DNA of 41,050 bases, from the IMG/VR virus record IMGVR_UViG_3300044229_003513, positions 1-41,050 of that record; one strand, written 5' to 3'. Below the pieces are notes generated by a model. The model saw only the letters and a list, made by a program, of their open reading frames with translations, was not told where the DNA came from and did no database searches. This DNA comes from a virus (Duplodnaviria > Caudoviricetes). A program made the translations under genes and the position numbers. Of this stretch, positions 9,304 to 39,191 are shown piece after piece (positions within the stretch are counted from its first letter, which is position 1; each line of letters opens with the position of its first letter).

Positions 9304-9687
9304 ATGTCAGAAACATCTTCTGATAGATTAGATGCCATTTTCTTTCTCCAGGAAAGATTTATGGAGCAGCTGTCGCAGAACAAAGAGCCTCTTCCTGAGT
9401 GGCCTGTGGACCCTTCTGATAAGAAGGCACAGCAGTTTATTCGTGATATCATTCATAGAGGAACTGAAGAGGCATTTGAAGCGCTACTCCATCTTAAAAA
9501 TTGGAAGCCTCATAAGCACACTGAAAACAAAGAATTTAATCGAGATGCGTTTCTCGAGGAGATGATTGACGACTTCACGTACAAGCTTGAAGCGTTAATT
9601 TTAATGGGATATGAGCCAAAAGAATTTTTTAACGCATTTTGCGAAAAGAATAGAAGAAATCTGGACAGGGTCAGAGGAGAGTACTGA
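9304..9687 (+). CDS. All-alpha (dimeric dUTPase / T4 gp56 dCTPase-like) dNTP pyrophosphatase
   Basis: Acidic helical motifs TEEAFEA...NWKPHK...EEMIDDFTY typical of the dUTPase_2/MazG-like fold. Confidence 0.75.
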   Translation: MSETSSDRLDAIFFLQERFMEQLSQNKEPLPEWPVDPSDKKAQQFIRDIIHRGTEEAFEALLHLKNWKPHKHTENKEFNRDAFLEEMIDDFTYKLEALILMGYEPKEFFNAFCEKNRRNLDRVRGEY

Positions 9688-10618
9688 CCTACTTGAGTAT
9701 TTGTTCAAGGCGCAAAATGATTTTTCTTCAAAGTTTATCGATCAAGAAAATTTGTCACTTGAAGAAAAAGAGCGACTTACTCAAGAGTTTGCTCTGGCGC
9801 TACACAATGAAGTTTCATCTCTTGTAAGAGAAATTAATTTTAAGCACCACGCAAGTGAAAGAAAAGACATTGTAAAAAACTCCATTCTGTTTGAAGGAAT
9901 TGATTGCTTTCGATATCTTTTAGCGATTATGAATTTGTGGGGTTTTACGCCTAAAGAGTTCCTCGAAGCGTTTGATGACAAATCTGCTTATCTGGATATT
10001 AAATACAACAATGAGCAAGAGTGGGCAGGACAACCTGTTATCCTGGTCGATGTCGATGATGTTGTCGCAAACTTCAGAGAAGGATATGCTGAATACTTAA
10101 ATTCTTTGGATGGAGTCAGTGTTGATGTAAGCTCCAGTGAGTACTATTTCACAGAAGGAATCCCTAGAGAAAAGTACAATCCTGAGCTAATCTTTCAAGA
10201 CTTCATCGAAGCCAGAATGCTAAGAACGCTATCATCAGATCAAAGCATGGTAGATGCTGTTAATAAACTATACGAACAAGGTCACTGGATTCATGTTCTA
10301 ACTGCTAGGCCTGACTGGAATCAAACTTGCAAGTACGACACTTACACGTGGCTTGCAAACTCAGGAATGAAATTTCATAGAGTGTCATTCTCACCTGAGA
10401 AAATGATTTGGGCTGCAAAGTCAAAATACTACGATGAGGATGCAATACTTTGCGCAATAGATGATTCTCCGAAACACTCCAGAGAGTATGCAAAGCACGG
10501 GGTTAAGGTAATCTCTCCAAGCAAAACATACAACACAGAGCTTCAAAATGTTGACAATGTCTTTGTTGTGAATGACGGCAAAGAGGTGGACCAAGTAATT
10601 CAAAACTTTGGAGGTTAA
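9611..10618 (+). CDS. Fusion of a second all-alpha NTP-PPase-like domain and a HAD 5'(3')-deoxyribonucleotidase (NT5C-like)
   Basis: N-domain LHNEVSSLVREINFKHH...FEGIDCFRY parallels the upstream ORF. C-domain has VDVDDVVANF, LTAR, IDDSPKH. Start is uncertain (77-nt overlap). Confidence 0.72.
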   Translation: MSQKNFLTHFAKRIEEIWTGSEESTDLLEYLFKAQNDFSSKFIDQENLSLEEKERLTQEFALALHNEVSSLVREINFKHHASERKDIVKNSILFEGIDCFRYLLAIMNLWGFTPKEFLEAFDDKSAYLDIKYNNEQEWAGQPVILVDVDDVVANFREGYAEYLNSLDGVSVDVSSSEYYFTEGIPREKYNPELIFQDFIEARMLRTLSSDQSMVDAVNKLYEQGHWIHVLTARPDWNQTCKYDTYTWLANSGMKFHRVSFSPEKMIWAAKSKYYDEDAILCAIDDSPKHSREYAKHGVKVISPSKTYNTELQNVDNVFVVNDGKEVDQVIQNFGG

Positions 10619-11923: not shown

Positions 11924-12907
11924 ATGCCTCAAAACCCTAATCTTGAACCTGTTACTTTGCCCATGCCTCTTCGGTTTGAAGAGAAGCCGGAAACTGAATT
12001 TGTTAATGATCTTGATGCATTACGTGTTGAGCTTGTTGATAGTCCTACTGGTGAGCAGATTCGCAATGTCGCGTACCGCTATGTAAAAGCTACCTGGGCT
12101 GATTCCCCCGAAGAAACTGACCCCTTGAATGCCACGCAGCGCGAGCTTTCTGAGACTCTTGAAGATGTTATGCAGTTTCGCGCGCTTCCTGCTGGAATGG
12201 AAGCAATGTCCTTTACGTTCCTCGTCGGGGGAATCGACCTCCAGACTGTTACACACTTGATTCGACATCGAGCAGGTACTTTCGCCGCTCAGTGCACTGG
12301 CGATCGCTGGCAGTCTCATAGCCGAGCTTTAATCCCTGCTGCTGTCCAAAACAGTCCTGAAATCTATAACCGCTGGAAGGACCACGTTGAAGCAGGTAAG
12401 CAGCTTTATGCAGATATGATTGACACTAGAGAGATTAGTATTATGGACGCACGAACCATCCTGCCTCGTGCTATCGAAACCTTTTATTACGCTCGATTTA
12501 ATCTGAAAGACTTGATCGGCTTCATCCGACAACGATGTGACAAGCAAATTCAACCTGCAGTAGATAATCTAATGGCAGCCAAGATGGCACTCGAGGTTTG
12601 CAAAGTCATCCCTGAGGCGGCAACTGTTATTGGCACCAAGACACTGACTGGGCCTGCTATGCACTACGTGCGTAATCTTCGAGCTGGAACAGGTACTAAC
12701 CTTTACTGGCCAGATGCAGACACTGATGCCAAGATCGAATATCACCCAAATGATACGATCTATCAGGCTGAAAGAGACGACGTTAACGGAACTAATCCTC
12801 CTGAAAACGAAACTGGAGAAAATAGTAAGTTCCGTCAACACTGGAACTCCTTGTTAGGTCAAATTAACGACATCGAAGTTGAATATCGAGACCGAATGGG
12901 CAGATAA
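11924..12907 (+). CDS. thyX: Divergent flavin-dependent thymidylate synthase (ThyX-like)
   Basis: FTF, HLIRHR-x7-C (Ser in canonical ThyX), DARTILP, NLKDLIGFIRQR. AGGAG SD. Confidence 0.75.
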   Translation: MPQNPNLEPVTLPMPLRFEEKPETEFVNDLDALRVELVDSPTGEQIRNVAYRYVKATWADSPEETDPLNATQRELSETLEDVMQFRALPAGMEAMSFTFLVGGIDLQTVTHLIRHRAGTFAAQCTGDRWQSHSRALIPAAVQNSPEIYNRWKDHVEAGKQLYADMIDTREISIMDARTILPRAIETFYYARFNLKDLIGFIRQRCDKQIQPAVDNLMAAKMALEVCKVIPEAATVIGTKTLTGPAMHYVRNLRAGTGTNLYWPDADTDAKIEYHPNDTIYQAERDDVNGTNPPENETGENSKFRQHWNSLLGQINDIEVEYRDRMGR

Positions 12908-13432: not shown

Positions 13433-13555
13433 ATGTTAATGGCTGCCATCATAGAGCTGGAAGAAACTAAAAGAAAGAATTCTTTATACTCTGTGCTTAT
13501 ACCGTTTATGTTTACAGTAGGCCTAGGCGTAGGTTTCTACATTGGAATTTCATAA
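13433..13555 (+). CDS. Small membrane protein (40 aa), not in the ORF track
   Basis: MLMAAIIELEETKRKNSLYSVLIPFMFTVGLGVGFYIGIS* fills the intergenic gap; basic patch followed by one TM helix. Confidence 0.55.
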   Translation: MLMAAIIELEETKRKNSLYSVLIPFMFTVGLGVGFYIGIS

Positions 13556-13568
13556 TTTTGGAGAAAAA

Positions 13569-14006
13569 ATGAAAGTTTATATCGCATCACCGTTTTTCAA
13601 CCCTAAGCAAGTTGATCAAGTCGAGTTTATGAAGAGTGCTTTGACTGCAACTGGCCATGAGTACTTTAGCCCAAAGGATTTTTTCGTCCTTAATCCGAAC
13701 GCAACTCAAGAAGATCGTCAGCGCATTTTTGACGTAAACTGCGAAAAGATTCAGTGGGCTGATTTTGTTCTATGCAACACAGAAGCTAAGGATCTTGGCA
13801 CTATCTGGGAAGCGGGTTACGCTTATGGTATCAACAAGCCTGTTGTTTTCTTTGCTGAAGGACTTCCAGAAGGCAAGTTTAACGTAATGCTCAGCGAAGC
13901 CGGCAAATCTGTTAACACTGATCGTGAACAGCTTGTTGATTACTTAGACCGTGTCCATGAAGCAGGCGAACTTATTTTTGAACAATATACAGGATTTACG
14001 CAGTAG
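13569..14006 (+). CDS. Nucleoside 2-deoxyribosyltransferase / nucleotide N-glycosidase family
   Basis: KVYIASPFF, IFDVNCEKIQWAD, DLGTIWEAGYA (catalytic Glu), FNVML. GGAG SD before ATG 13569. Confidence 0.88.
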   Translation: MKVYIASPFFNPKQVDQVEFMKSALTATGHEYFSPKDFFVLNPNATQEDRQRIFDVNCEKIQWADFVLCNTEAKDLGTIWEAGYAYGINKPVVFFAEGLPEGKFNVMLSEAGKSVNTDREQLVDYLDRVHEAGELIFEQYTGFTQ

Positions 14007-14691: not shown

Positions 14692-14881
14692 CGAAAGAAA
14701 ACCTATTCTGGAAGATGAGAGCATTCTTTGGCCCGGAACAAAGATCGTGGTTAAAGAAACCAAGGAGCAAGCGATAATCTTGCACTCTCTCAGATACGGT
14801 GAAACTTATTCTGTTCAAACGCCCTCGGGTAACGTTTTAACTCTTAAGAAAACAGATATGGAGATCATGTCATGCGAGTAA
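14681..14881 (+). CDS. Small hypothetical protein (SH3/KOW-like beta pattern)
   Basis: PGTKIVVKETKEQAIIL...YSVQ; overlaps both neighbours by a few bases. Confidence 0.5.
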   Translation: MTTNERKPILEDESILWPGTKIVVKETKEQAIILHSLRYGETYSVQTPSGNVLTLKKTDMEIMSCE

Positions 14882-15843
14882 TGATCACAGGCGAAGCAGG
14901 ATTTATAGCAAAAAATCTACCTGCCTCCTTTAATGCACTTGGGCACGAGTTTGTTCCGTTTTTGAACAACAAGAATTTGGTGTGCCTTGATACAGGTGAA
15001 CCTTGTGTGCATAGAAACACAGAAGATGACTGGGCTAGAGAGTTATCTGCCAACGAAATTAATTTAATAGTGCACAATGCTGCTGTTGTAGGCACTGACG
15101 TTGTTGCGCTTAACAGTGCTGAGTCTACGCAATCTAATGTGACAGGAACTTACAATATTTGCAGAGCTGCAAAAAAGCTGAATATTCCAGTTTGCTATAT
15201 CGGAACCACAGTGATTTACGATACATCTGCCTACCAAAGAAACGTCATTCACGAAACGTCAGCGAGATTTCCAAGAACTCTTTATGGAATCCAAAAAAGA
15301 GCATCAGAAGATATCGTGATATCAGTTTGCAATGACTACAATATTGTGAGGCCTTTGTTTGCGTATGGAGGTGTCGGCGACATGAACAGTTTGATTTCAA
15401 AAACTTTCTACGCTGCTACTAAGGGCGTAGAACAAATTGATATGTTTCTTGATCCAGCTAAGGTTAAAGACTATATGCATGTTGAAGACTTTTGTGACGG
15501 TGTTGCAATAGCATGTCATAACCGGGCGTGGGGAACTAGCTTCAATATTGCAGCAGAAAATCCTTATGACACTCGAGAAATAGTTAGAGTGATGGAAAGA
15601 ACCTCAGGTCTAGATTTAATGCATAAAATAAAGTGGCACCCTGAGACTGACTACCTTGGAAATCATAGACTTTCCGCAGAAAAGTTTAAGACAGCTTTTA
15701 ATTGGAAACCTAGGTATACACTCAAGACGGGAATTCAAGAGGCTTGGAATTCAATCTCAGCTTCCCAAGACATAAACTACGATCCTCTTAAGCACTTAAA
15801 TGAAGCAAAAGAAAAAGGTGTGGATCTAACGCAGTTTTACTAG
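14872..15843 (+). CDS. NAD-dependent NDP-sugar epimerase/dehydratase (extended SDR), divergent
   Basis: ITGEAGFIA, HNAA, YGIQK (YxxxK), KDYMHVEDF. Confidence 0.88.
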   Translation: MRVMITGEAGFIAKNLPASFNALGHEFVPFLNNKNLVCLDTGEPCVHRNTEDDWARELSANEINLIVHNAAVVGTDVVALNSAESTQSNVTGTYNICRAAKKLNIPVCYIGTTVIYDTSAYQRNVIHETSARFPRTLYGIQKRASEDIVISVCNDYNIVRPLFAYGGVGDMNSLISKTFYAATKGVEQIDMFLDPAKVKDYMHVEDFCDGVAIACHNRAWGTSFNIAAENPYDTREIVRVMERTSGLDLMHKIKWHPETDYLGNHRLSAEKFKTAFNWKPRYTLKTGIQEAWNSISASQDINYDPLKHLNEAKEKGVDLTQFY

Positions 15844-22412: not shown

Positions 22413-25400
22413 GTGTCATTTAAAGATTTTAAAATACCAAACCGCTTCGTAGGCCTGCATGCGCATTCCGGTTTTTCAACCTATGACGGCCTTGGTTACC
22501 CTGCTGATCATATCGATTTCGTCCTAGAAAACGGCATGGATGCATGGGCGCTAACAGATCACGGCCACGGGTCAGGATTAGCTCATGCTCACAAGCATTA
22601 TGAGAAGATGAAAAAAGCAGGCAGGAAGTACCGACAAGTTTACGGTGTTGAGTTTTACTTTGTTGAAGATCTAGATGAGTGGAAGCGCCAATATGAAAAT
22701 CATCGTGCTCGCATTAAAGCCGAACGAGATGCAAAGAAAATTGAGGCTTTAGCAACAACTGACGTCAATGTTGACAATGAAGATGAGTTAATGTCTGAGG
22801 GCCACACTATTGAAAACGAAGACGAATCTAAACAGGGATCGAAAGGTAAGCCTGAGTGGATGCGTCGTTACCATTTGTGTGTCACAGCTAGAAATCCAAT
22901 AGGTTTGGCAAACTTGTTCACCCTTGTTAAAAGAGGCTACAAGGACGGATTTTATCGTTTTCCTCGCATTGATTTTAAGATGCTTAAAGAGTACGGCGAA
23001 GGTCTTAGCGTAACTACAGCATGTGTTGGCGGGATTTTTAGCGGAAGAACTTTCCAAGAATTTCCTGACTTGACATTCGACCAGCTCGGGCCCGAACTTC
23101 TTGACGATCCTGCCAAAAAAGCCAGTTTGATGAGAACCCTAGGTAATCTCACCGACCGCTTTGTTGATGCAGTTGGAGAGCAAAATTTCTTCTATGAAAT
23201 GCAATTCAACAAGCTTTCAGCACAGCACATGGTTAATCGTGCGCTAATAGATCTTCATGATCAAACAGGTGTCAATCTTGTTACTACTTGCGATTCACAC
23301 TATCCTACACCTAACAAGTGGGAAGCTAGAGAGCTTTATAAAAAACTTGGATGGATGGGCAAGGAGATGACACCTCTTCCTGTCTTTGATGAGCTTAAGT
23401 GTGAGCTCTATCCAAAGAATGCTGAACAAGTTTGGGATGAGTTTGAGATCGGCTGGAACAATTACGACTTTTATCATGGGCGCGAAGATCTTGTAAGAGA
23501 CAGTATTGAAAGGACACACGATCAAGTCTGGGATCGCTACCAAGACATGTGGGTGGATTCAAAGGCTAAGCTGCCGAATTATGCTGTGCCTCAAAAGAGT
23601 CATTCCTGCTACCCTTCTCCACCTGAAGAGACACCGTTCCAGCAGCTAGCGCTCAAGGTAAAGAATGCAATGATCAGCACAGGCCTTGCTTCTAAGCCTG
23701 AATATGTCGCTCGTGTCAAAGAAGAGCTTGATGATATCAAGTTTCTTGGTTTTGAGAACTACTTCTTGACTATGCATGACGTGTTTCACCTCGCAGCTGA
23801 AAAGACTCTGTTTGGTCCTGCTCGAGGTTCAGGCGGCGGATCGCTCGTTAACTATCTATTGGGCATCACTCAAGTTGATCCCATTCCATACGGTTTGCTT
23901 TGGTCCCGATTCCTTGGGCGACATCGAACTTCTTGGCCTGATATTGACTCTGATGCTGGTGATCGTGATGCTCTTATTGACGCAGCCAGAGAGCTTTTTG
24001 GTGAGGATGCAGTTATTCCTGTTTCCAACTTCAATACTCTTAAACTCAAGTCTATTGTCAAGGACGTTGCCAAGTTTTATGATGTTCCGTTTCAGGAGGT
24101 TAACGCTCTTACAGGCCCGCTGCAATCCGAGGTTGAACCTCATGCTCGAGATGCTAACACTGAGAAATCTGTGTTCGTCCTCACCCATGAGGATTGCATG
24201 AAGTACTCTAAGAAGTACAAAGATTTCATGGAAAAGTACCCAGATGTTGAAAAGCATGTGAGCACCTTGTTTATGGAACAGCGATCAATCGGTCGCCATG
24301 CTGGGGGTGTACTAATTGCTGATGAGCGTGAGCTTGAGCAGACAATGCCCTTGATATCAGTTCGAGGAGAGTTACAAACTCCCTGGACTGAAGGTATGAA
24401 CTTCCGCAACTTGGAAGATAACGGATTTATTAAGTTTGACTTCCTTGGTCTTACGCTGATGAAAGACGTTGAAAACTGCATTAAAAGAATCCTTCGTAAG
24501 GACAGTGGCGAAAACCCTTCTTTCCTCCAGATTAGAGATTACTTTGACAAGCATCTTAACTGCAGGTATGTCGAACAAGACGACCAAAAGGTTTGGGAAA
24601 ACACTTATCATAACTCGTCCTTTGCACCGGGCATCTTTCAGTTTACTGCTCAAGGTGCCAGAAACTTCTGTCATCAAGCTAAGCCTCGAAACATTGAGGA
24701 GCTTGCTGCCATCACCGCCATTTATCGTCCTGGCCCACTTAAGGCAAATGTGCACGTTAAGTACGTCGAAGCAGGCAAAGACATTGAAAACATTCAGTAT
24801 GCCCACCCGATTATCGAAGAGGTCTTAGGGCCAACAAGAGGTTTCATTACGTTCCAAGAACAGTTTATGACTCTCGCTGTTAAGCTCGCAGGGTTTTCAC
24901 CAGGCGAATCAGATAAGATGCGCAAAACTCTTGTGAAGAAGTCTTTGGACACGATTGGTAAAAAAGGCTCTGAGCGTGACCAGCTTCGAAAGCAGTTTGT
25001 CGAAGGTGCTGAGCGACTTCACGGCCTAGATCCAAAGGACATGAACGAGCTTTTTGACAAGATCGAGTTCTTCTCTCTTTATGGGTTTAATAAATCACAC
25101 GCCGTTGCTTACGCAATCGATAGCTACTACGCTGCGTGGTTATACACCTATCATCCTAGAGAGTGGATCGCTACGGTTCTTGAGTCTGAAAACAATTCAC
25201 CTCAAGGACTAGCAAAGGCCATCCGAGAATCCAAAGCGCTAGGTTATAAGTTTGCTCCAGCAGATGTAAACTATTCGGGAGATGAATGGACTTACAATAA
25301 AGAGTTGCAAGCTCTTATGCCGCCACTCTCATCAATTAAAGGTCTCGGTGACAAAGCGATGGATGAGATACTAGAAGCTCGACCATTCAAGAACTTAAAT

Positions 25401-26342
25401 GATCTCTTTTATGATAGCGATGGTGAGTGGCGTCACTCTAAGGTAAACAAGACTTGCTTTGAAGCGCTATGTCAAATTGAAGCCTTTTCTTCTCTAGAGG
25501 AGTTTAAAGAAGGCCAACTAGACAACCATAGGCAGTTGCTGCACATCATCTCAGAAAATTATGAAAAGATCAGAAAAGGTCGCACTGGAGAAGATAAGCT
25601 TCGTGAGCGCTTAGTTAGAATCGGTGAGCAAATCAAAGAAGAGTTCGACAAGATTCTGCGTGTTTACGAGAAGACTAAGATGTCCGATTTGCAAGAACAG
25701 GCGTCTCAACACATCTTCAATTGCAGTGTTGTTGACTGGTGTTATAGCGAGCACGCTGCAGATTTAATCAAGGGCATTGGTCATCCTAACCACAAGCGAC
25801 AAGCACAACTTGATAAGTGTTTTGAAAGGCTTGAAAACTACTACGCCAGAAGAGATAAGATTGCTGATAGAATAGAATCACTATTCAGTATTGACTCGTC
25901 TATTCTCGGAGTTTCTCACATCAAAGACTGGTCTCGAGACGAGAAGATAGTCTTGTACCAGCAAATAACTTCTGCTATCAATAATGCACTCGTCTTCCCT
26001 GCAGAAGTCATGCGTAGAATTGAAAAAGCTGATGTTAAATCATTGTGTGAAATGGTCGGTGGCGACAAAGGCGTTGCTTGGGGGTGTGCTACTGAGATCA
26101 TCAAAAAGAAGACCAAGAACGGCAAAGAATTTTACCGAATTAGAATGATGGACGATCAGAACAGGACTGCATGGCTTCGAGTTTGGGGCAAGTTCTTTGA
26201 CTGGGGTGAGGAGAGAGGTCAAAAGATCTACTATGAGCCACAACCTTTCTCTTACTGGCTCATGGAGACCGAAGTTGATCCAAACTGGGGTGCATCCTCA
26301 GCTGCTTGGAAAATGAGAAAGATACCTCTTTACGATGATTAA
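22413..26342 (+). CDS. dnaE: DNA polymerase III alpha subunit (family C)
   Basis: PHP domain LHAHSGFS..DG, ALTDHG, GVE, CDSHY; ARGSGGGSL; PDIDSD; GRHAGGV; KFDFLGL; GIFQF; YRPGP; YGFNKSHA. Confidence 0.96.
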   Translation: MSFKDFKIPNRFVGLHAHSGFSTYDGLGYPADHIDFVLENGMDAWALTDHGHGSGLAHAHKHYEKMKKAGRKYRQVYGVEFYFVEDLDEWKRQYENHRARIKAERDAKKIEALATTDVNVDNEDELMSEGHTIENEDESKQGSKGKPEWMRRYHLCVTARNPIGLANLFTLVKRGYKDGFYRFPRIDFKMLKEYGEGLSVTTACVGGIFSGRTFQEFPDLTFDQLGPELLDDPAKKASLMRTLGNLTDRFVDAVGEQNFFYEMQFNKLSAQHMVNRALIDLHDQTGVNLVTTCDSHYPTPNKWEARELYKKLGWMGKEMTPLPVFDELKCELYPKNAEQVWDEFEIGWNNYDFYHGREDLVRDSIERTHDQVWDRYQDMWVDSKAKLPNYAVPQKSHSCYPSPPEETPFQQLALKVKNAMISTGLASKPEYVARVKEELDDIKFLGFENYFLTMHDVFHLAAEKTLFGPARGSGGGSLVNYLLGITQVDPIPYGLLWSRFLGRHRTSWPDIDSDAGDRDALIDAARELFGEDAVIPVSNFNTLKLKSIVKDVAKFYDVPFQEVNALTGPLQSEVEPHARDANTEKSVFVLTHEDCMKYSKKYKDFMEKYPDVEKHVSTLFMEQRSIGRHAGGVLIADERELEQTMPLISVRGELQTPWTEGMNFRNLEDNGFIKFDFLGLTLMKDVENCIKRILRKDSGENPSFLQIRDYFDKHLNCRYVEQDDQKVWENTYHNSSFAPGIFQFTAQGARNFCHQAKPRNIEELAAITAIYRPGPLKANVHVKYVEAGKDIENIQYAHPIIEEVLGPTRGFITFQEQFMTLAVKLAGFSPGESDKMRKTLVKKSLDTIGKKGSERDQLRKQFVEGAERLHGLDPKDMNELFDKIEFFSLYGFNKSHAVAYAIDSYYAAWLYTYHPREWIATVLESENNSPQGLAKAIRESKALGYKFAPADVNYSGDEWTYNKELQALMPPLSSIKGLGDKAMDEILEARPFKNLNDLFYDSDGEWRHSKVNKTCFEALCQIEAFSSLEEFKEGQLDNHRQLLHIISENYEKIRKGRTGEDKLRERLVRIGEQIKEEFDKILRVYEKTKMSDLQEQASQHIFNCSVVDWCYSEHAADLIKGIGHPNHKRQAQLDKCFERLENYYARRDKIADRIESLFSIDSSILGVSHIKDWSRDEKIVLYQQITSAINNALVFPAEVMRRIEKADVKSLCEMVGGDKGVAWGCATEIIKKKTKNGKEFYRIRMMDDQNRTAWLRVWGKFFDWGEERGQKIYYEPQPFSYWLMETEVDPNWGASSAAWKMRKIPLYDD

Positions 26343-26520
26343 TCCGGGTGAACTAGTTCGTGTAACAAAAACCGCGATACAAGATAGCAGGTTTTTAAAC
26401 AAGGTCGGAATTCTAATACGAGATGACGGTGTTGACGATTGCGGAAACCCAGAAGTATTCATTCTTGTCGAAAATGATATAATATGTGTATACCCCGACG
26501 GATATGAGGTAGTGGAGTAA
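26335..26520 (+). CDS. Small hypothetical protein (SH3/KOW-like)
   Basis: MINPGELVRV...KVGILI; overlaps the dnaE stop. Confidence 0.55.
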   Translation: MINPGELVRVTKTAIQDSRFLNKVGILIRDDGVDDCGNPEVFILVENDIICVYPDGYEVVE

Positions 26521-26522
26521 AA

Positions 26523-27434
26523 TTGATTACTTTTCCTGTAAATAAAATTGCCCTAGAGGGATGTGATCTCTCAGGAAAAACAACGCTTTACAATGAAATT
26601 CATAAAAAATCAGGCTTTAAGTGGAACATGGATGACCGATCCGGTATTTCTATGTGTGTCTACTCTAAGCTTTACAACAGAGATGATTTTTACACTCGAA
26701 AAAATCTGCATCTGGAGATGTCAAATCTAAACAACCAGTTTATTCTTCTATATCCAGATATTCACACTATTCATGAAAGGTTTTTAAGCAGGGGCGATGA
26801 AGCACAAGATATCTCTTCTTTGAGTGATCTACACATCCTCTTTGGAAAAGAGCTTGAAAGATATTGCATGCTACCTAACTTTCACGTATTTCATTCAGGA
26901 CAAACAGAAGAACAGGCAGAAGAAATTGTAAGACGATGCCGACGCCTTGAAAACATTTCCGTAGACACAGTCGGAAACTATGTTAGAGAGTTTGCTAAGT
27001 TTCAACCTAACAGAGAGTCGACAACAGTTCAATTTCACTTCTACGATGACGGAACGTTCAGTTCAGTTAATGAAGGAATTCTTTTCACGCCAGGCGAAGA
27101 AGAATATTACCAAAAGATTAGGAATACTTTTTTGCAAAAGATTAAAAACGAGCTCAAAGGAAACAATCATTACGGTAGAAAAGAAACATCTAGTTCCAGG
27201 CGTTTTGTATTCGCAGGTGAAGAGTGCATATCATTTATTCAAGCAGTTTTTAGGGATGATTTGCTTGATGTGCACGCAGTATTCAGGTCTTCAGACACCG
27301 CACACAAAACAGGAACAGATATTCAACTAATACACATGCTTGGAAGAGATGCATTCGATCTTCTTGGTTTAGATGCATCCCGACACAAGGCACGCTTTAG
27401 ATTTAACATCAATAGTGCTCACGTACTAAGCTAG
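26523..27434 (+). CDS. Fusion of dNMP (thymidylate-like) kinase and minimal thymidylate synthase / dCMP hydroxymethylase-like domain
   Basis: P-loop ALEGCDLSGKTT and DDRS. C-terminal SSRR, ECISFIQ (Cys), FRSSD-x7-D, NSAH. Confidence 0.75.
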   Translation: MITFPVNKIALEGCDLSGKTTLYNEIHKKSGFKWNMDDRSGISMCVYSKLYNRDDFYTRKNLHLEMSNLNNQFILLYPDIHTIHERFLSRGDEAQDISSLSDLHILFGKELERYCMLPNFHVFHSGQTEEQAEEIVRRCRRLENISVDTVGNYVREFAKFQPNRESTTVQFHFYDDGTFSSVNEGILFTPGEEEYYQKIRNTFLQKIKNELKGNNHYGRKETSSSRRFVFAGEECISFIQAVFRDDLLDVHAVFRSSDTAHKTGTDIQLIHMLGRDAFDLLGLDASRHKARFRFNINSAHVLS

Positions 27435-27882: not shown

Positions 27883-28809
27883 ATGAGAAGAGCATTAGTC
27901 ACCGGTGCTGCCGGTTTTATAGGATCCAATTTAGTTAGTCGCCTTTTATGCGAAGGTTGGGACGTAACAGGTGTAGACGATCTAAGTTCAGGAAGCCTTG
28001 ACCTGCTTGAAGGCTGCAAAGGCCTGCGCTTAGTCGTAAATGATTTTGCTTGCGATGCCATTCTTGAAGAAATAAAAAACAAAGAGTTTGATGTTGTGTT
28101 TCATCTTGCTGCGATCCCAAGGGTTAGTTACTCTGTCGAGCACCCAGCTAAAACCACGCAAACAAATGTTGCAGGAACTTCTGCGCTGATGGAAGCATGC
28201 CGCGACAATGTCAAAAGGTTTGTGTATTCATCTTCTTCTTCTGTTTACGGTGGTGCAGATGTCCTCCCTACGCCTGTGTCTTATCCAAGAGATCCAAAGT
28301 CACCGTATGCGTGGCAAAAGTCTTCGATTGAAGATCTGCTTAGAATCTTTGGCAACCTGTACGATTTTGACTCTGTGTGCCTGAGGTATTTCAATGTGTT
28401 TGGCCCAAATCAATATGGTGACTCTCCTTACTCCACAGCAATTTCTGCTTGGTGTCACGCAATTAAAAATGGCGGGATTCTAAGAAAAGATGGCTCTGGA
28501 GAACAAAGTCGAGATATGTGCTACGTCGATAACGTTGTTGATGTAAACATTCGTGCAGCAAACCACGAAGGCGCATTTAGAGGCGAGGCTTTCAATGTAG
28601 CATGTGGCGACAGAACGAGTAATAACCAGATTCTTGAAGCGTTTAAAGAGCGGTTCGGTGATTTAGAGATAGAGCAAGCACCATTTCGTCCAGGAGACGT
28701 CATGCACACGCAAGCAGATATATCAGAAACAGAGCGTGTTTTTGGCTATAAGCCCCTTGTTCGCTTTTGGGAAGGTTTAGAGAAAACTTTTGACTGGTGG
28801 GACATTTAA
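27883..28809 (+). CDS. NDP-sugar 4-epimerase (GalE/WbpP-like extended SDR)
   Basis: VTGAAGFIGS, FHLAA, SSSSVYG, SPYAWQK, LRYFNVFGP, GEQSRD, RPGDV. Confidence 0.92.
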   Translation: MRRALVTGAAGFIGSNLVSRLLCEGWDVTGVDDLSSGSLDLLEGCKGLRLVVNDFACDAILEEIKNKEFDVVFHLAAIPRVSYSVEHPAKTTQTNVAGTSALMEACRDNVKRFVYSSSSSVYGGADVLPTPVSYPRDPKSPYAWQKSSIEDLLRIFGNLYDFDSVCLRYFNVFGPNQYGDSPYSTAISAWCHAIKNGGILRKDGSGEQSRDMCYVDNVVDVNIRAANHEGAFRGEAFNVACGDRTSNNQILEAFKERFGDLEIEQAPFRPGDVMHTQADISETERVFGYKPLVRFWEGLEKTFDWWDI

Positions 28810-28857: not shown

Positions 28858-30735
28858 ATGGGTGGAATTGCATTTAAAGACAGCCAGGGAAACTCGTTAG
28901 CCAGCGGAGTTGACAGAAAGTATGTAAAAGACACACTAGATGATCTTTTTGCAAACCACTTAAAAGATGCAGGAATTTCTGGGTACGAGCCGGTCGGCTC
29001 TACAGGAAAGAAATCTATCGCTGGTGATCTTGATATCGCAGTTCAACCAGCTCAGAAAGATAACAAGTTAGCAAAAACTCAGATCTATAGAAATCTTGTT
29101 GGTTCACTAGGCGCTGATAGAGTAAAAGTGATCGGCCCTAATCTCACAGTTCTATACCCTATTAAAGGAGACCCAGAGGACCGAGACGCTCAGGTTGACT
29201 TGATGATTGCCCCAGATCTCGAAAGCGCAGGTTGGTTAATGGCAGGCGTTGGAGACGAAGGCATTAAGGGTATTTTTAGAAATGTAATGCTTGGGCACAT
29301 TGCCGCAGAGCGAAGCAAAGAGCTTGGGACTCATGAGAAGATGACTGTTGCCACACCCGGTGGATTAGGTAGGCTCTCTCTTGACCCTGCACTTGATCCA
29401 GCGTTACCAAAAAACAAGAGAAAGTTTAAACTAGTGGGGCAGAGGATCACCAGCCCGCAGGCAATTTTAGATGGATTAGGCATTCCAAGCAACCCATCAG
29501 AGACAGCTAGTTTCGAGGGTTTGGTAAATGTTATGACTAAAGATCCCGATTTAAAACAAATGCTCTCAACCTTTAAAGATTATTTATCACAAAGAGTGTC
29601 TAATGCACAACACCCGCAGTTTCAAAGAGTGCTAAGTCACGTGGAGTCAGTTATGAGTGAAGCTATGATTAGAAACGCAGTAAGAAAAATGCTAGAAATG
29701 AAGCAGAAACAACTGCAGGAAAAGATTGTAAAGATAGGTGAGGATGAGCTTTACGATCTCACAGATGACAATCTCGAATCTCTGAGAACATTTATACGCA
29801 GTGAGCTAGGTGTAAGTGAATACGACCCTGACGCATCACGTCAATCTTATATTGATTCGATCGATGCGGTCCGCGGTGACACACAATTTTCTGATGCTAT
29901 GAAAGGTTATCCTGATGAGTATAAAAAGCTTGTTTTAGATTATCTCATGTCTGCTGAAGAAGGCCCAGATGAGATTGGCCCAATGCTATTTTCTCTTTCT
30001 GCGGGCAATTCGTCTGCCGTAGATATACCGGCACAGTTTTTAGATATTCTTCACTATAATGAAGGACAGGGTCTCGGCCGTGGTGAGCTTTTAACACCGC
30101 TTCTTTACGATAAGTCTTCTTGGGTTGGTGGTGCTTCCGCTACTCACGACGTAGATATCGGAGATCAGGCTTGGGAAATTAAGCATCACAGATCTTTCAA
30201 CGAACCTTTCGTTTTCGGTGGCGGAGCAAAGTCTTTCTTTAGATCTCCTAATAATCTGGCCGCGGCAATAAAAGCCACTGGGTACGACATAGATCAGCTG
30301 CAAACAATGGGTAGAGACGAAAGTTTGAAGGCAATTGAGGATATCGCTACGAATTACAAACCAAAGATTGACGGCAAGGTCATAGACACTTCTGCAAAGC
30401 TGCTGCACCTGCTTGATCAAATTGCTAGAGAGCACGTTCTGCCCAAGGGAGAGGCTGGGGTTCTTTTGTACCAGTCCAAGTCAGCCGCAGGATCCCCTAC
30501 AAAAACTAGATTTGTTGACAAGGATGATCTTTATTTTTATGCTTTTGGCGGAAGAAAGACAGGTAGATATTTGCTATATGCGCCAGAATCACCAAGTCCA
30601 GCTCGAGAATCTATGGCACCTCCAGTCGTTGATGAAGAAGAACCAGCACAGACAGAAGAACCTGAGCAATCAGAAGAAAACCTGAACGAGTCAGCTCAAA
30701 ACCGCTGGCAGTTAATAGCAGGAATAAAAGAATAA
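28858..30735 (+). CDS. Multidomain protein: Pol-beta-type nucleotidyltransferase plus PD-(D/E)xK-like domain; putative virion cargo
   Basis: VGSTGKK...GDLDIAV...QVDLM; GRGE...HDVD...WEIK; acidic tail ending LNESAQNRWQLIAGIKE. Confidence 0.6.
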   Translation: MGGIAFKDSQGNSLASGVDRKYVKDTLDDLFANHLKDAGISGYEPVGSTGKKSIAGDLDIAVQPAQKDNKLAKTQIYRNLVGSLGADRVKVIGPNLTVLYPIKGDPEDRDAQVDLMIAPDLESAGWLMAGVGDEGIKGIFRNVMLGHIAAERSKELGTHEKMTVATPGGLGRLSLDPALDPALPKNKRKFKLVGQRITSPQAILDGLGIPSNPSETASFEGLVNVMTKDPDLKQMLSTFKDYLSQRVSNAQHPQFQRVLSHVESVMSEAMIRNAVRKMLEMKQKQLQEKIVKIGEDELYDLTDDNLESLRTFIRSELGVSEYDPDASRQSYIDSIDAVRGDTQFSDAMKGYPDEYKKLVLDYLMSAEEGPDEIGPMLFSLSAGNSSAVDIPAQFLDILHYNEGQGLGRGELLTPLLYDKSSWVGGASATHDVDIGDQAWEIKHHRSFNEPFVFGGGAKSFFRSPNNLAAAIKATGYDIDQLQTMGRDESLKAIEDIATNYKPKIDGKVIDTSAKLLHLLDQIAREHVLPKGEAGVLLYQSKSAAGSPTKTRFVDKDDLYFYAFGGRKTGRYLLYAPESPSPARESMAPPVVDEEEPAQTEEPEQSEENLNESAQNRWQLIAGIKE

Positions 30736-32680: not shown

Positions 32681-32866
32681 ATGAGGCGGCGTCATAGGCG
32701 CATTCTACTAAACAACGACATTTACAAGATTATAATGAAAGTGTTTAGCCGAAAAGGTAGGTTCTGGCTGGTGCGAACGCCTTGCTTAAAGAGATTTTTG
32801 GCACATGAGATTGCTAACGCAGTTGCTAAGAGGTGTGAAGAGGAAATAGATAGTGAGACATCCTGA
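32681..32866 (+). CDS. Small basic hypothetical protein
   Basis: Abuts both neighbours. Confidence 0.5.
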   Translation: MRRRHRRILLNNDIYKIIMKVFSRKGRFWLVRTPCLKRFLAHEIANAVAKRCEEEIDSETS

Positions 32867-33425
32867 GTTTATCATATTCACTGGGCCTATGTTTGGATCT
32901 AAGACCACACGACTCATGGCAGTCGTTGATAGGTTCAAGTATCAAAACAGAAAAGTTTTAGCTTTTAAGCCTAAGATGGACGACAGGTACGATCAAGCTG
33001 ACATTGTAACACACAATGGTGGAAAGATAACTGCCAACACCATACATGATGCCGCTGAGATAATCATGCACTTAGCAGAGTCAGAAGATAATTACGATGT
33101 TGTAGCAGTAGATGAAGCATTTATGATTAGCGGCATTGCTGACGTGCTTATTTGGCTTTATCAGAGAGGAATAACTGTTGTGGTTTCTTCTTTAGACATG
33201 TCAGCAACTTGTAACCCTTTTGATGAGCTTCAAAAGATGATGCCCTGGGCAACAAAAATTGAGAAATGCCCAGCAGTTTGTCCTGTCTGCGGTAGAGACG
33301 CTTACTATACTTATAAGAAGAACAACGACGGCATCGAAATTGCAGTGGGCGGATCAGAGCTTTATGAGCCAAGATGTTTTGATCACCACCCACTTATGAA
33401 CAAGAGAGAGTACAATGATACCTAA
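32853..33425 (+). CDS. tdk: Thymidine kinase (type II)
   Basis: GPMFGSKTT, VDEAF, CPVC, VGGSELYEPRC. Confidence 0.92.
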   Translation: MRHPEFIIFTGPMFGSKTTRLMAVVDRFKYQNRKVLAFKPKMDDRYDQADIVTHNGGKITANTIHDAAEIIMHLAESEDNYDVVAVDEAFMISGIADVLIWLYQRGITVVVSSLDMSATCNPFDELQKMMPWATKIEKCPAVCPVCGRDAYYTYKKNNDGIEIAVGGSELYEPRCFDHHPLMNKREYNDT

Positions 33426-34272
33426 CCCTAGAGACGTGGATCTTGTAATTTATCACAAGAACTGCACAGATGGATTTGGTTCTGCTTACGCTGCTTGGCG
33501 TCTTTTAGGCAATAGAGCTGAGTATATTGCTTGTGCTCATGGAGAAATACCTCCCGATGTCAAAGGAAAGAAAGTTGCTATTTGCGACTTTTCCTTCAAG
33601 AACGCTGTAACAAAGAAAATGATCGAAGAAGCAGACGCACTTGTCGTGCTTGATCACCACAAATCAGCAATGGTCGAGCTGCATGATATCCCAGATGCAA
33701 TTTTCAATATGGAGAAATCAGGCGCTGTGATTACATGGGAATTTTTTCATCCTGGAAAAGAAGTTCCAAAGTTTATTCAGTACATTGAAGACAGAGATTT
33801 GTGGAAATGGGATCTTCCTTATTCAAAGGAATTTGCAGCTGCTTTTGATATGGTGCCTTTTGAGTTTGAAGAGTTTGAGAAGTTTGAAGATGACTCTGTG
33901 TTTGATGACGCAGTTAAAAGAGGCAGCTACATTCTTGCCTACTCAAAAACAGTTGTTAAAAAGATTGCAGATAAAGCGATTCCAAGAAAGCTTGCAGGTC
34001 ACGAAGCACTTGTTGTTAATGCCTCTCACTGGATGTCGGAGATAGGTAATGCTCTATCGCCTCATTGTGACCTTGCACTTATTTGGTTTCACGATCACGA
34101 AGAGAAGAAAATTCGTGTAAGCTTAAGAGCTTTCCACGATAACATAGACGCGTCAGAGATTGCCAAACAATTCGGCGGCGGAGGCCATAAGTCTGCTGCT
34201 GGATTTACATGGGAAAAAAATATTGAGGATTTATTCGATAAGCCAAAGAAAAAATCGAAAAAGTCTACTTAA
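33415..34272 (+). CDS. DHH/DHHA1 phosphoesterase (NrnB/nanoRNase-like)
   Basis: YHKNCTDGFGSA, CDFS, LDHH, EDRDLW, SLR, GGGGH. Confidence 0.88.
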   Translation: MIPNPRDVDLVIYHKNCTDGFGSAYAAWRLLGNRAEYIACAHGEIPPDVKGKKVAICDFSFKNAVTKKMIEEADALVVLDHHKSAMVELHDIPDAIFNMEKSGAVITWEFFHPGKEVPKFIQYIEDRDLWKWDLPYSKEFAAAFDMVPFEFEEFEKFEDDSVFDDAVKRGSYILAYSKTVVKKIADKAIPRKLAGHEALVVNASHWMSEIGNALSPHCDLALIWFHDHEEKKIRVSLRAFHDNIDASEIAKQFGGGGHKSAAGFTWEKNIEDLFDKPKKKSKKST

Positions 34273-34833: not shown

Positions 34834-35325
34834 ATGTCAAAGTTTCCTGATGATCCAAATTGTTATGACTGCGGGTGCGATAGCAAGCCTGCGTGTCCAG
34901 GCTATCAGGAGGATGGCCGTCCCGAGTGGGATAATGTATGGATGAAGGTTGCTCACAACGTGGCTGAACGATCTTATGATCCTAGGCACAAAGTGGGTGC
35001 CATTATCGTTACTGAGGATAACACGCAACTGCTTTCTTTAGGTTACAACGGCAACTATAAAGGCGGCCCAAACAAAGCTGAATCAGAGCATCCTGGTGAA
35101 TCTGGTTTTATACATGCAGAGCAGAACGCTCTTATCAAGCTAGATTACAACAATCCAAAAGTAAAAAAGATGTATATTACTTTAAGCCCTTGTGCTCATT
35201 GTGCTAAAATGATTGTTAATTCTAACATCGAAGAAGTGATATACGATCAAGAGTATAGAGACCCTCGCGGTCTAGATATTCTTCGAGAAGCAGGAGTAAA
35301 GGTAAGGCAGTACAGTGCATCATAA
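34834..35325 (+). CDS. dCMP deaminase
   Basis: VGAII, GYNG, HAEQNA, SPCAHC. Confidence 0.92.
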   Translation: MSKFPDDPNCYDCGCDSKPACPGYQEDGRPEWDNVWMKVAHNVAERSYDPRHKVGAIIVTEDNTQLLSLGYNGNYKGGPNKAESEHPGESGFIHAEQNALIKLDYNNPKVKKMYITLSPCAHCAKMIVNSNIEEVIYDQEYRDPRGLDILREAGVKVRQYSAS

Positions 35326-38159: not shown

Positions 38160-39191
38160 ATGAGTGAATTTGATTTTGTTGACCACTATGAAGACCAGGA
38201 AGAGTCTGCAAATCTTCTTCCTGAAAACGAAGCTGAGTCTGCAATTAATTGTGCCTTTATTGGCGTCGGTGGCGGCGGCTGCAAGATTGCTAAAGGATTT
38301 TTAGATTTAGGTTTTACAAAGACTCTTTTGATCAACACGACAGACAAGGATTTTCAAGCAGGAATCGACAAGGATCACTTGCTAGCACTCCCGGGCGCTG
38401 ATGGCGTTGCAAAGAACATTGAACTCGGGCGCAAGGTACTCAATGAAAACAGCGCACTGGTCGAAGATGCACTGCGCACTAGGCTTGGCAAGGTTGACTG
38501 GCTTTTCGTTTGTGCAGGTGGCGGCGGAGGGACTGGTTCTTCTGCAGCAATCTTGGATCCTGTTTTTAAGCGCTTTCTTGAGATCAATGAAGCATCTGGT
38601 AAAGTTGTTTATGTTGTGACATCACCCACATCTCAAGAGAAGTTAAACGCAACTATTAAGAGTAACGCTAAGTCACTAGAGGCAGACGTTGCAGATAACC
38701 CTCACATCGTGCTTGACAACGAGCGCCAGCTAAACTCTTTCCGTGGCAAGGTAGGAGTTCTCGGTCTTTACCCTGCTGCGAATAAAGCATTTGCTAAAAT
38801 GTTCTGGCAGCTTTTGCGCCTTGCATGCGAGCAATCACCAATCCAAGCTTTTGACGGCAAGGACCTTGAGAGATTCCTCAGTGCAACAGGTAGAATTGTT
38901 TTGGGGTCTGCTATCGTGCAACCAAGCACAAATCTTGGTGTTGAACTTTATCAGAGCTGTATCAACAACTCTCCATGCCCAAAACCAACAGGGCATGCTG
39001 AAACCGGTGTTCTTTTACAGGTAATTACTGAAGATCACGCTAACGATGTTGATATTAGCGGTCACTTGGAAGCCGCCACTGCATACGTCGGCGGAAGAAC
39101 CAACACCCTGTTCTCAGGAATTTATGTTCGTGACGCTTTACCCGGGCTTGTAAGTGTTATGGCACTTGCAGGATTGCCATGCGACAACTAA
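38160..39191 (+). CDS. Tubulin/FtsZ-family GTPase (PhuZ/TubZ/CetZ-like)
   Basis: FIGVGGGGCKIA, INT, GADGVAKN, AGGGGGTGSS signature, VLDNE. Confidence 0.9.
   Translation: MSEFDFVDHYEDQEESANLLPENEAESAINCAFIGVGGGGCKIAKGFLDLGFTKTLLINTTDKDFQAGIDKDHLLALPGADGVAKNIELGRKVLNENSALVEDALRTRLGKVDWLFVCAGGGGGTGSSAAILDPVFKRFLEINEASGKVVYVVTSPTSQEKLNATIKSNAKSLEADVADNPHIVLDNERQLNSFRGKVGVLGLYPAANKAFAKMFWQLLRLACEQSPIQAFDGKDLERFLSATGRIVLGSAIVQPSTNLGVELYQSCINNSPCPKPTGHAETGVLLQVITEDHANDVDISGHLEAATAYVGGRTNTLFSGIYVRDALPGLVSVMALAGLPCDN

Follow-up and report, generated by a model that had tools for sequence, protein, structure and literature searches.

A nucleoside monophosphate kinase fused to a minimal thymidylate synthase fold belongs to a probable pyrimidine-modification module of tailed phages

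The viral record IMGVR_UViG_3300044229_003513 (Duplodnaviria; Caudoviricetes) in IMG/VR, whose 41,050 nucleotides are called the window here, contains a gene (26523..27434) that joins a nucleoside monophosphate (NMP) kinase to a minimal domain of the thymidylate synthase (TS) fold, hereafter the mini-TS. Judging from the sequence of this fusion and of the genes that travel with it, the module likely makes a modified pyrimidine nucleotide, and the modified base is probably cytosine. The mini-TS likely binds deoxycytidine monophosphate (dCMP) and activates its C5 position through Cys235. The rest of the chemistry is proposed more tentatively. In the full mechanism, which we rate a little below even, C5 is coupled to 2-deoxyribose released by a nucleoside 2-deoxyribosyltransferase (NDT) and the adduct is reduced by a paralog of the flavin-dependent synthase ThyX, giving polyhydroxypentyl-dCMP. 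The 41-kb window also encodes DnaB, ribonucleotide reductase, DnaE and many nucleotide enzymes; the fusion and the other window genes given a function in or beside the module below are on the plus strand.

The fusion protein has 303 amino acids and 210 representatives at E<=0.001. Its gene starts with TTG, at a position shared by the homologs, and a GGAG ribosome-binding site (26514..26517) lies 6-9 nucleotides before the start. The full-length model is predicted with a mean confidence (pLDDT) of 95. Residues 1 to about 145 (26523..26957) form a YorR-type NMP kinase domain with the P-loop EGCDLSGKT; the P-loop, the DR motif and the lid arginines are all present on an NMP-kinase fold. The best match of residues 1-150 is YorR of the Bacillus phage SPbeta (PDB 2axp/3kb2), an uncharacterised protein of this fold, both by profile (2axp, E=4.4e-7) and by structure (VIA Z 14.0, root-mean-square deviation (rmsd) 2.6, 139 residues aligned). 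YorR is a separate protein, whereas the kinase here is fused to the mini-TS. A tblastn search of 50,697 phage records with the fusion gave weak matches only, eight of them to the kinase part, and none reached 80% coverage. An unfused kinase-TS pair occurs in the cultured marine podophage HTVC119P of Pelagibacter (L082:3998-5282), where a kinase resembling the N-terminal domain lies directly 5' of a full-length TS homolog.

The mini-TS itself comprises residues 142-303 (26946..27431), as delimited by profile and predicted structure. As a single sequence the fusion protein has no Pfam match at E<=0.01, and its C-terminal domain is missed by single-sequence searches of Pfam, PHROGs and PDB sequences; low-score matches of this domain to Spt5, spike and WzzB proteins were dismissed as chance. 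Of 275 distinct homologs, 230 cover the positions of both C235 and D266, and the counts given here use those 230; since the 275 include near-identical relatives, the counts do not represent independent events. C235 (27225..27227), which aligns with the catalytic Cys of T4 dCMP hydroxymethylase (dCH, gp42) and of RB69 gp48, is kept in 224 homologs, and D266 (27318..27320), the cytosine-type residue at the N177/D179 position, in 227, with Asn in one. R226-R227 (27198..27203) is the phosphate-binding pair by alignment and lies at the interface in the dimer model. In R255-S256-S257-D258 (27285..27296) the last residue stands at the D169 position and varies in the family: position 258 is Asn in 106, Asp in 101, Glu in 15 and His in four, and the query has Asp. 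The NSAH motif with His300 (27411..27422), of which SAH is common to AfhB, stands near the C-terminus, and the chain ends three residues past His300. Among 56 aligned homologs R226, R227, C235, R255, S256, D266 and H300 are invariant. Conservation of the key residues is far above chance. E192-x-x-Y195-Y196 (27096..27110) is also conserved (E in 221, the two Tyr in 207 and 212 of 230; EPYY in Geobacillus phage GR1), and these three residues are candidates for acid/base groups standing in for a deleted TS segment. An acidic residue at the L143 position, in an intact loop before the Cys, is taken as a mark of T4-type enzymes; in the shortened loop here, the query has Gly three residues before the Cys, where 86 of 230 homologs have Asp. 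A first-pass annotation, made by eye, had named the P-loop kinase, SRR (S225-R226-R227), C235 in ECISFIQ, RSSD at 255-258, D266 and NSAH at 297-300. All are where it put them, and its alignment was correct where standard annotation fails to give a Pfam match or a meaningful PDB sequence match.

Folded alone, the C-terminal domain (142-303) is predicted with pLDDT 93 and resembles the TS fold (Foldseek E 4e-7). Its VIA Z scores against seven TS-fold chains range from 7.9 to 11.0, with 5.1 for the best unrelated chain. The highest is AfhB (9iqc, Z 11.0, rmsd 2.9, 143 aligned), followed by ThyA (10.1), MilA (9.7) and T4 dCH (7.9). The TS fold proposed in the first-pass annotation is thus borne out, but with AfhB and ThyA tied, the fold cannot choose between their chemistries. 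The family profile matches T4 dCH with E=0.004, AfhB with E=0.017 and the T4 D179N mutant with E=0.093. Because the mutant scores worse than the wild type, the register of D266 with D179, which had been assumed from the motif, is confirmed, and hhalign agrees. The domain is also predicted to be a homodimer (ipSAE interface score 0.91, best control 0.01; runs agreeing in at least 95% of contacts; partner pLDDT at least 91), with an interface formed by the sheet, R226/R227 and R255/S256 and with R226 touching S298 of the partner. The mark used for dimers is reached by 20 of 30 solved homodimers and by one of 23 monomers, and the pass may reflect likeness to TS dimers already solved. In the model the homodimer has the composite active site of the TS superfamily.

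What sets the mini-TS apart from its relatives is what it lacks. It has about 160 residues, compared with 246 in T4 gp42 and 238 in RB69 gp48, and, relative to these two, 14 and 16 residues are missing from the stretch that links the Arg pair to the Cys, which agrees with the first-pass impression that much of the folate-binding part is lacking. Cys148, RS-x-D-x7-D179 and the His of T4 gp42 are in register with the mini-TS, and both systems have a gp56-like pyrophosphatase and a dedicated kinase, which in T4 is gp1. Compared with T4 gp42 and MilA, however, the mini-TS is missing the C-terminal tail, the greater part of the helical middle region and a stretch of 14 residues preceding the Cys, with no folate site evident; the module polymerase, DnaE, is a further difference from the T4 gp42 system. 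The core sheet, the predicted back-to-back dimer, the Arg pair, the Cys and the His are common to ThyA (PF00303), from which the mini-TS differs in having Asp for Asn177, no His147, no Tyr209, an unfixed D169 position, about 100 fewer residues and no match to the Pfam family.

In the TS family, attack of the Cys at C6 activates C5, and Asp at position 177 selects cytosine, according to the passages available of two papers (PMC13326640, PMC8670742). The closest characterised enzymes are AfhB of phage HY126 (PDB 9iqu/9iqc), RB69 gp48 and DLP3 gp80, which share with the mini-TS the fold, the Cys, the RS motif, the Asp at 177, the SAH motif and a YorR-like kinase in the cluster (PMC13326640, in part). 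These are 5-hydroxy-dCMP synthases, for which D169N is the published signature (same source). The mini-TS could be a dCMP 5-hydroxylase of this kind, dependent on reduced flavin and O2, with the ThyX paralog or a nitroreductase supplying the flavin and transferases encoded elsewhere glycosylating the product. AfhB is its top structural match, SAH is common to both, Asn occupies the 169 position in 106 of 230 family members, and a YorR-like kinase lies beside the hydroxylase in DLP3 (Table 1 of the same paper). The Z score of AfhB is nevertheless tied with that of ThyA. All hydroxylases tested in PMC13326640 have Asn at the signature position, where the query has Asp258 and the family N, D, E or H. 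The mini-TS is also about 75 residues shorter than RB69 gp48 and, unlike the 5-hydroxy-dCMP synthases, it lacks the 16 residues before the Cys, can be fused to its kinase, and has a ThyX paralog and NDT as partner genes instead of arabinose genes. We consider a hydroxylase unlikely for these reasons and for others of gene content given below, and C5 hydroxylation is not supported as the leading example, the place it has in the first-pass annotation.

The partner of the mini-TS is a divergent ThyX paralog (11924..12907 in the window) with the motif RHR-x7-C-TGD. Its best PDB match is the S88C mutant of the T. maritima enzyme, in which the His53 position aligns with Leu of the paralog. His53 we take to be the folate-stacking residue of ThyX. 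Leu is found there in all 75 distinct copies, and the Cys in 75 of 75 too, a count biased by one retrieval pattern that included the Cys. Searches with the paralog reached 13 loci outside the window's clade: the cultured phage GR1 (OK896991) of the harmless host Geobacillus stearothermophilus (ATCC 10149), with 49% identity, two Firmicutes contigs of metagenome-assembled genomes and ten further viral contigs. The two Firmicutes contigs were found with the paralog alignment, and a single-sequence scan of genome contigs gave none. In 12 of the 13 loci a stand-alone mini-TS follows the ThyX paralog directly; the thirteenth ends at a contig edge. The stand-alone proteins have 150-203 residues and keep the Cys, RS-x-[ND]-x7/8-D and the His, and they match the mini-TS with probabilities (Prob) of 96.2 for the GR1 copy and 95.6 for that of locus L113. 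The GR1 copy, found by way of its ThyX paralog, is a protein of 151 residues annotated as hypothetical (UDY80710.1, L081:8969-9424) right after the paralog. A profile search with the C-terminal domain among proteins of 84-307 residues, which gave almost only fusions of about 300, had suggested an obligate fusion; the stand-alone copies overturned this. Full-length TS genes of VPE25-type phages and Lactobacillus phage ATCCB (281 and 269 residues), which lie beside a beta-glucosyltransferase, were examined and fall outside the family.

The 13 loci form two groups which, with the window clade, make three lineages. The smallest form of the module (L112, L113, L201, L203) consists of six adjacent genes: a pyrophosphatase, a kinase::NDT fusion, a YfbR-like HD enzyme, the ThyX paralog, the mini-TS and DnaE. 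These loci contain neither a glycosyltransferase nor an epimerase, so we dropped the proposal that the mini-TS stands in for a glycosyltransferase and uses sugars linked to nucleoside diphosphate (NDP) from the epimerases. The kinase shares a chain with NDT in one group and with the mini-TS in another, and in GR1 it is a free protein that matches the kinase domain of the fusion with Prob 97.6; this ties all three to one pathway. NDT is present in 72 of 80 and in 12 of 13 ThyX-paralog loci, and the pyrophosphatases match T4/RB69 gp56 with Prob 95.0 and 98.2. The first-pass annotation had the domain act on dCMP and hand its product to the fused kinase. It missed the unfused copies and the tie in gene order to the ThyX paralog, NDT, nucleotidase and gp56-like pyrophosphatase, and a direct transfer to the kinase from this domain alone is improbable. 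These gene contents also bear on the hydroxylase. The GR1 module holds a glycosyltransferase and a nitroreductase, and a large relative of the window phage (G001) has a large glycosyltransferase island, as such an enzyme would call for; the minimal module and L199, the module locus of the complete genome G006, are without a glycosyltransferase, and a hydroxylase would leave NDT with no role beyond scavenging.

The pair could instead divide ordinary one-carbon chemistry, the paralog carrying methylene or hydride on its flavin while the mini-TS activates dCMP, to give 5-methyl- or 5-hydroxymethyl-dCMP, with NDT, the HD or HAD enzymes and the pyrophosphatase only depleting normal deoxycytidine. 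One-carbon transfer to C5 is the normal chemistry of both folds, T4 dCH is the best sequence-profile match of the mini-TS, and a depleting NDT has a precedent in dZ phages, as far as the accessible part of the report goes (10.1101/2025.10.22.683976). We give this a low probability because, with Leu at His53 in 75 of 75 paralogs and no folate-side segments in the mini-TS, neither partner shows a folate site, and because a single intact TS-fold enzyme already makes 5-hydroxymethylcytosine in T4, so that a split seems unnecessary.

That the pair simply makes dTMP, or that the mini-TS has no catalytic role and senses nucleotides for the kinase, is highly improbable. GR1 and G006 have only the paralog and no ThyA, which would suit a dTMP synthase, and the Cys is lost in a few distant homologs (6 of 230), which would suit a sensor. 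In three phage groups the proteins, fused or not, nevertheless keep the Cys, Arg, Asp and His, and a mini-TS that stands alone carries no kinase for it to regulate. Among five large relative records, moreover, none encodes ThyA, all five encode the paralog and four encode a canonical ThyX as well, including one rated 100% complete. G007 has a full ThyA. A canonical ThyX alongside the paralog indicates that dTMP supply is covered separately, in line with the first-pass annotation, which had assigned the domain a role other than dTMP synthesis.

Several further genes of the window lie in or beside the module. An all-alpha NTP pyrophosphatase resembling the T4 gp56 dCTPase (9304..9687; PHROG 12184/173) is the one whose family profile gives Prob 95.0. 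A second all-alpha pyrophosphatase domain (9611..10618), weak against gp56 (Prob 20.5), is fused to a HAD 5'-nucleotidase-like domain that matches SP15_135 with Prob 93.1. NDT is encoded at 13542..14006 and the DnaE-type polymerase at 22413..26342. Two genes for NAD-dependent epimerases/dehydratases of the short-chain dehydrogenase/reductase (SDR) type appear to be accessory: one (14872..15843) is specific to the clade, with none seen in GR1 or the Clostridia-type module loci, and the other (27883..28809) is usually the next gene after the fusion. A thymidine kinase (32853..33425) and a dCMP deaminase (34834..35325) would provide the normal dTTP supply. The clade was sampled by 81 loci, namely the window and 80 from IMG/VR, which are partly redundant and truncated. 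In every one of them (81/81) the fusion lies downstream of dnaE. The NAD-dependent epimerase is found in 67, thymidine kinase and dCMP deaminase in 65 each, and the ThyX-like gene and NDT in 35 each. The ThyX-like gene is present in 34 of the 65 loci having at least 9.5 kb upstream, and in five of ten further records searched whole, the other five being 7-22% complete. Apart from the two SDR epimerases, no glycosyltransferase or NDP-sugar gene occurs among the conserved neighbours in the clade.

Other features of these loci are recorded here for their own interest. Between the thymidine kinase and the dCMP deaminase, at 33415-34272, lies an unusually conserved DHH phosphoesterase gene, found in 54 of 81 loci. 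A 625-residue open reading frame (ORF) at 28858-30735, present in 10 of 81 loci, has no Pfam match and an N-terminal GS...DLD motif, which by eye we presume to be that of a nucleotidyltransferase. A gene of the Tubulin/FtsZ family, with a weak match to PhuZ, is located at 38160-39191. In L013, L017, L020, L055, L060, L068, L074 and L078 the dnaE gene is broken up into two to four ORFs that have further ORFs between them, which suggests introns or homing elements. G001, the nearest large relative, is a T4-like myophage; its capsid, portal and terminase genes resemble those of T4, and it has a separate trimeric-type dUTPase (148 of its 206 ORFs were scanned). At about 36-64 kb (L084-L086), between PhoH and the baseplate genes, it has a glycosyltransferase island with a carbamoyltransferase, NeuB, methyltransferases and NDP-sugar enzymes. 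At L084:6359-10810 and L092-L093 it also encodes PrkA, SpoVR and DUF444 proteins as well as ClpB, GroEL, FtsH and pyruvate phosphate dikinase.

The proposed mechanism assembles these parts as follows. The gp56-like pyrophosphatase, whose homology is observed, would remove dCTP by converting it to dCMP, while the HAD or HD nucleotidase and NDT would release 2-deoxyribose from a deoxynucleoside. By analogy with the TS family, Cys235 would add to C6 of dCMP held by Asp266, Arg255, His300 and Arg226/227 of the partner chain; the shortened loop would leave C5 exposed to attack the aldehyde of the sugar, and water would be lost. The ThyX paralog, which is without the folate-stacking His, would then reduce the alkylidene with reduced flavin (FADH2). 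The kinase would raise the product to the diphosphate, and DnaE would incorporate the triphosphate in place of C. The expected nucleoside would have a mass of 345.15 Da or, with one oxygen taken off by the SDRs, 329.16 Da. Since neither enzyme has an evident folate site and NDT and the nucleotidase travel with them, deoxyribose in place of methylene-tetrahydrofolate, with hydride from the flavoenzyme, is the simplest use of all the parts. That the TS reaction is divided in this way between a mini-TS without cofactor and a ThyX without folate, so that genomic C would become 5-(polyhydroxypentyl)cytosine, is in our estimate possible rather than probable.

A known modification offers an analogy. 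SP-15 makes 5-(4,5-dihydroxypentyl)uracil before replication (PMC5977210), with ribose labelling indicated by the title of a reference, and Carin-5 and YerA41 are the other two phages with a confirmed long-linker T modification (PMC13697223); nominal linkers of 88 Da for Carin-5 and 104 Da for YerA41 are reported (PMC12686479; all three sources in the passages available). A tandem-domain NDT, a FabG-like SDR, the divergent ThyX gp130, a kinase-like gene and a HAD gene are clustered together in SP-15 genes 127-135 (L207:18730-26106), much as in the present module, and this cluster is a candidate for the genes of the dihydroxypentyl-uracil pathway; what can be seen of PMC5977210 proposes a different role for gp130. 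Homologs of gp130 occur in Carin-5, YerA41, GXN1, three Vibrio phages and phiXF1. The top two matches of the window NDT among cultured phages are GXN1 (40.8%) and GR1 (40.5%). The NDT gene of GXN1 (L208:3938-4423), of the same subfamily as that of the window, is unannotated and begins the order NDT, HD, gp130-type ThyX, polymerase. In YerA41 the product of gene 086 (L209:8380-8916), annotated as a mannosyltransferase, matches the NDT profile with 38.9 bits and lies 2.3 kb from the gp130-type gene. By calculation, dU plus deoxyribose, less H2O and plus H2, equals dT + 104.05, and one oxygen less gives dT + 88.05, which match the nominal linkers of YerA41 and Carin-5. The set of NDT, divergent ThyX, phosphatase and kinase that we infer for SP-15-type phages, which is our grouping and not a published definition, is present in the module.

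The same comparison raises the prospect that the module acts on uracil as in SP-15, the paralog and NDT building a pentyl-dUMP while the mini-TS feeds or finishes it, for instance by a Cys-assisted deamination of dCMP or modified dCMP. In SP-15-type phages NDT goes with a divergent ThyX and no mini-TS was detected, and dUTP is also a substrate of gp56-type enzymes, according to a database record. In the alignment the paralog keeps the Arg at the R174 position of ThyX, a residue to which we ascribe a uracil-binding role. Yet an ordinary dCMP deaminase is already nearby in 65 of 81 loci, the module phages use DnaE and not the PolA of SP-15-type phages, and Asp at position 177 goes with contigs of modified cytosine in the part of PMC8670742 consulted. 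We regard a uracil module as decidedly unlikely.

Several points weigh against the proposed coupling of deoxyribose to dCMP, or against its support from SP-15. SP-15-type phages modify uracil or thymine, and their ThyX belongs to another branch: the paralog matches the N-terminal half of gp130 with Prob 4.6 (canonical ThyX, 34.8) and, in another comparison, 0.2. As the paralog is no closer to gp130 than canonical ThyX is, the link to SP-15 is an analogy of gene content and not orthology. A search of the whole SP-15 record, with a loose first step, found no mini-TS, nor did scanning five stretches from SP-15, GXN1, YerA41 and Carin-5 with the profile. At 30%, the match of NDT to Carin-5 is no better than the one to Enterococcus phage VPE25, a phage without ThyX, and the match to the SP-15 kinase is weak (Prob 38). 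The published linker masses are nominal and, in the accessible text, mix m/z with neutral mass. A FabG-like SDR was considered as the reason for 88 rather than 104 Da and failed, because YerA41 also carries one. In dZ phages NDT, an HD enzyme and a pyrophosphatase were proposed merely to deplete a normal nucleoside, at least in the portion of the report seen (10.1101/2025.10.22.683976), and no sugar transfer is needed for that. Within the window's clade the ThyX paralog lies about 14 kb from the fusion, and the mechanism does not account for how an intermediate would get from a TS dimer to a ThyX oligomer.

Pre-replicative replacement of a pyrimidine by means of a TS-fold enzyme is already known; the enzyme pair and the chemistry are undescribed. 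In the literature searched, which largely leaves subscription papers uncovered, we found no description of the mini-TS family, of its pairing with the ThyX paralog or of pentyl-cytosine, and the passages seen of the paper on GR1 hold no base analysis of its DNA. Since the module is present in this cultured phage, it is directly testable.

As far as is known, phages make the modified pyrimidines of their DNA by way of TS-fold enzymes, and those characterised use folate or flavin and have a full-size pocket. A mini-TS reduced to the nucleotide-activating core, together with its tie to a rewired ThyX, suggests an undescribed chemistry in a widespread clade of aquatic phages and in phages of Firmicutes. 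The comparison also names candidate enzymes for the dihydroxypentyl chain of SP-15, namely the NDT gp127 and the ThyX-like gp130. If the proposed mechanism is true, the logic of NDT and ThyX would also explain the pentyl linker of SP-15, Carin-5 and YerA41, which has been unassigned since the 1970s.

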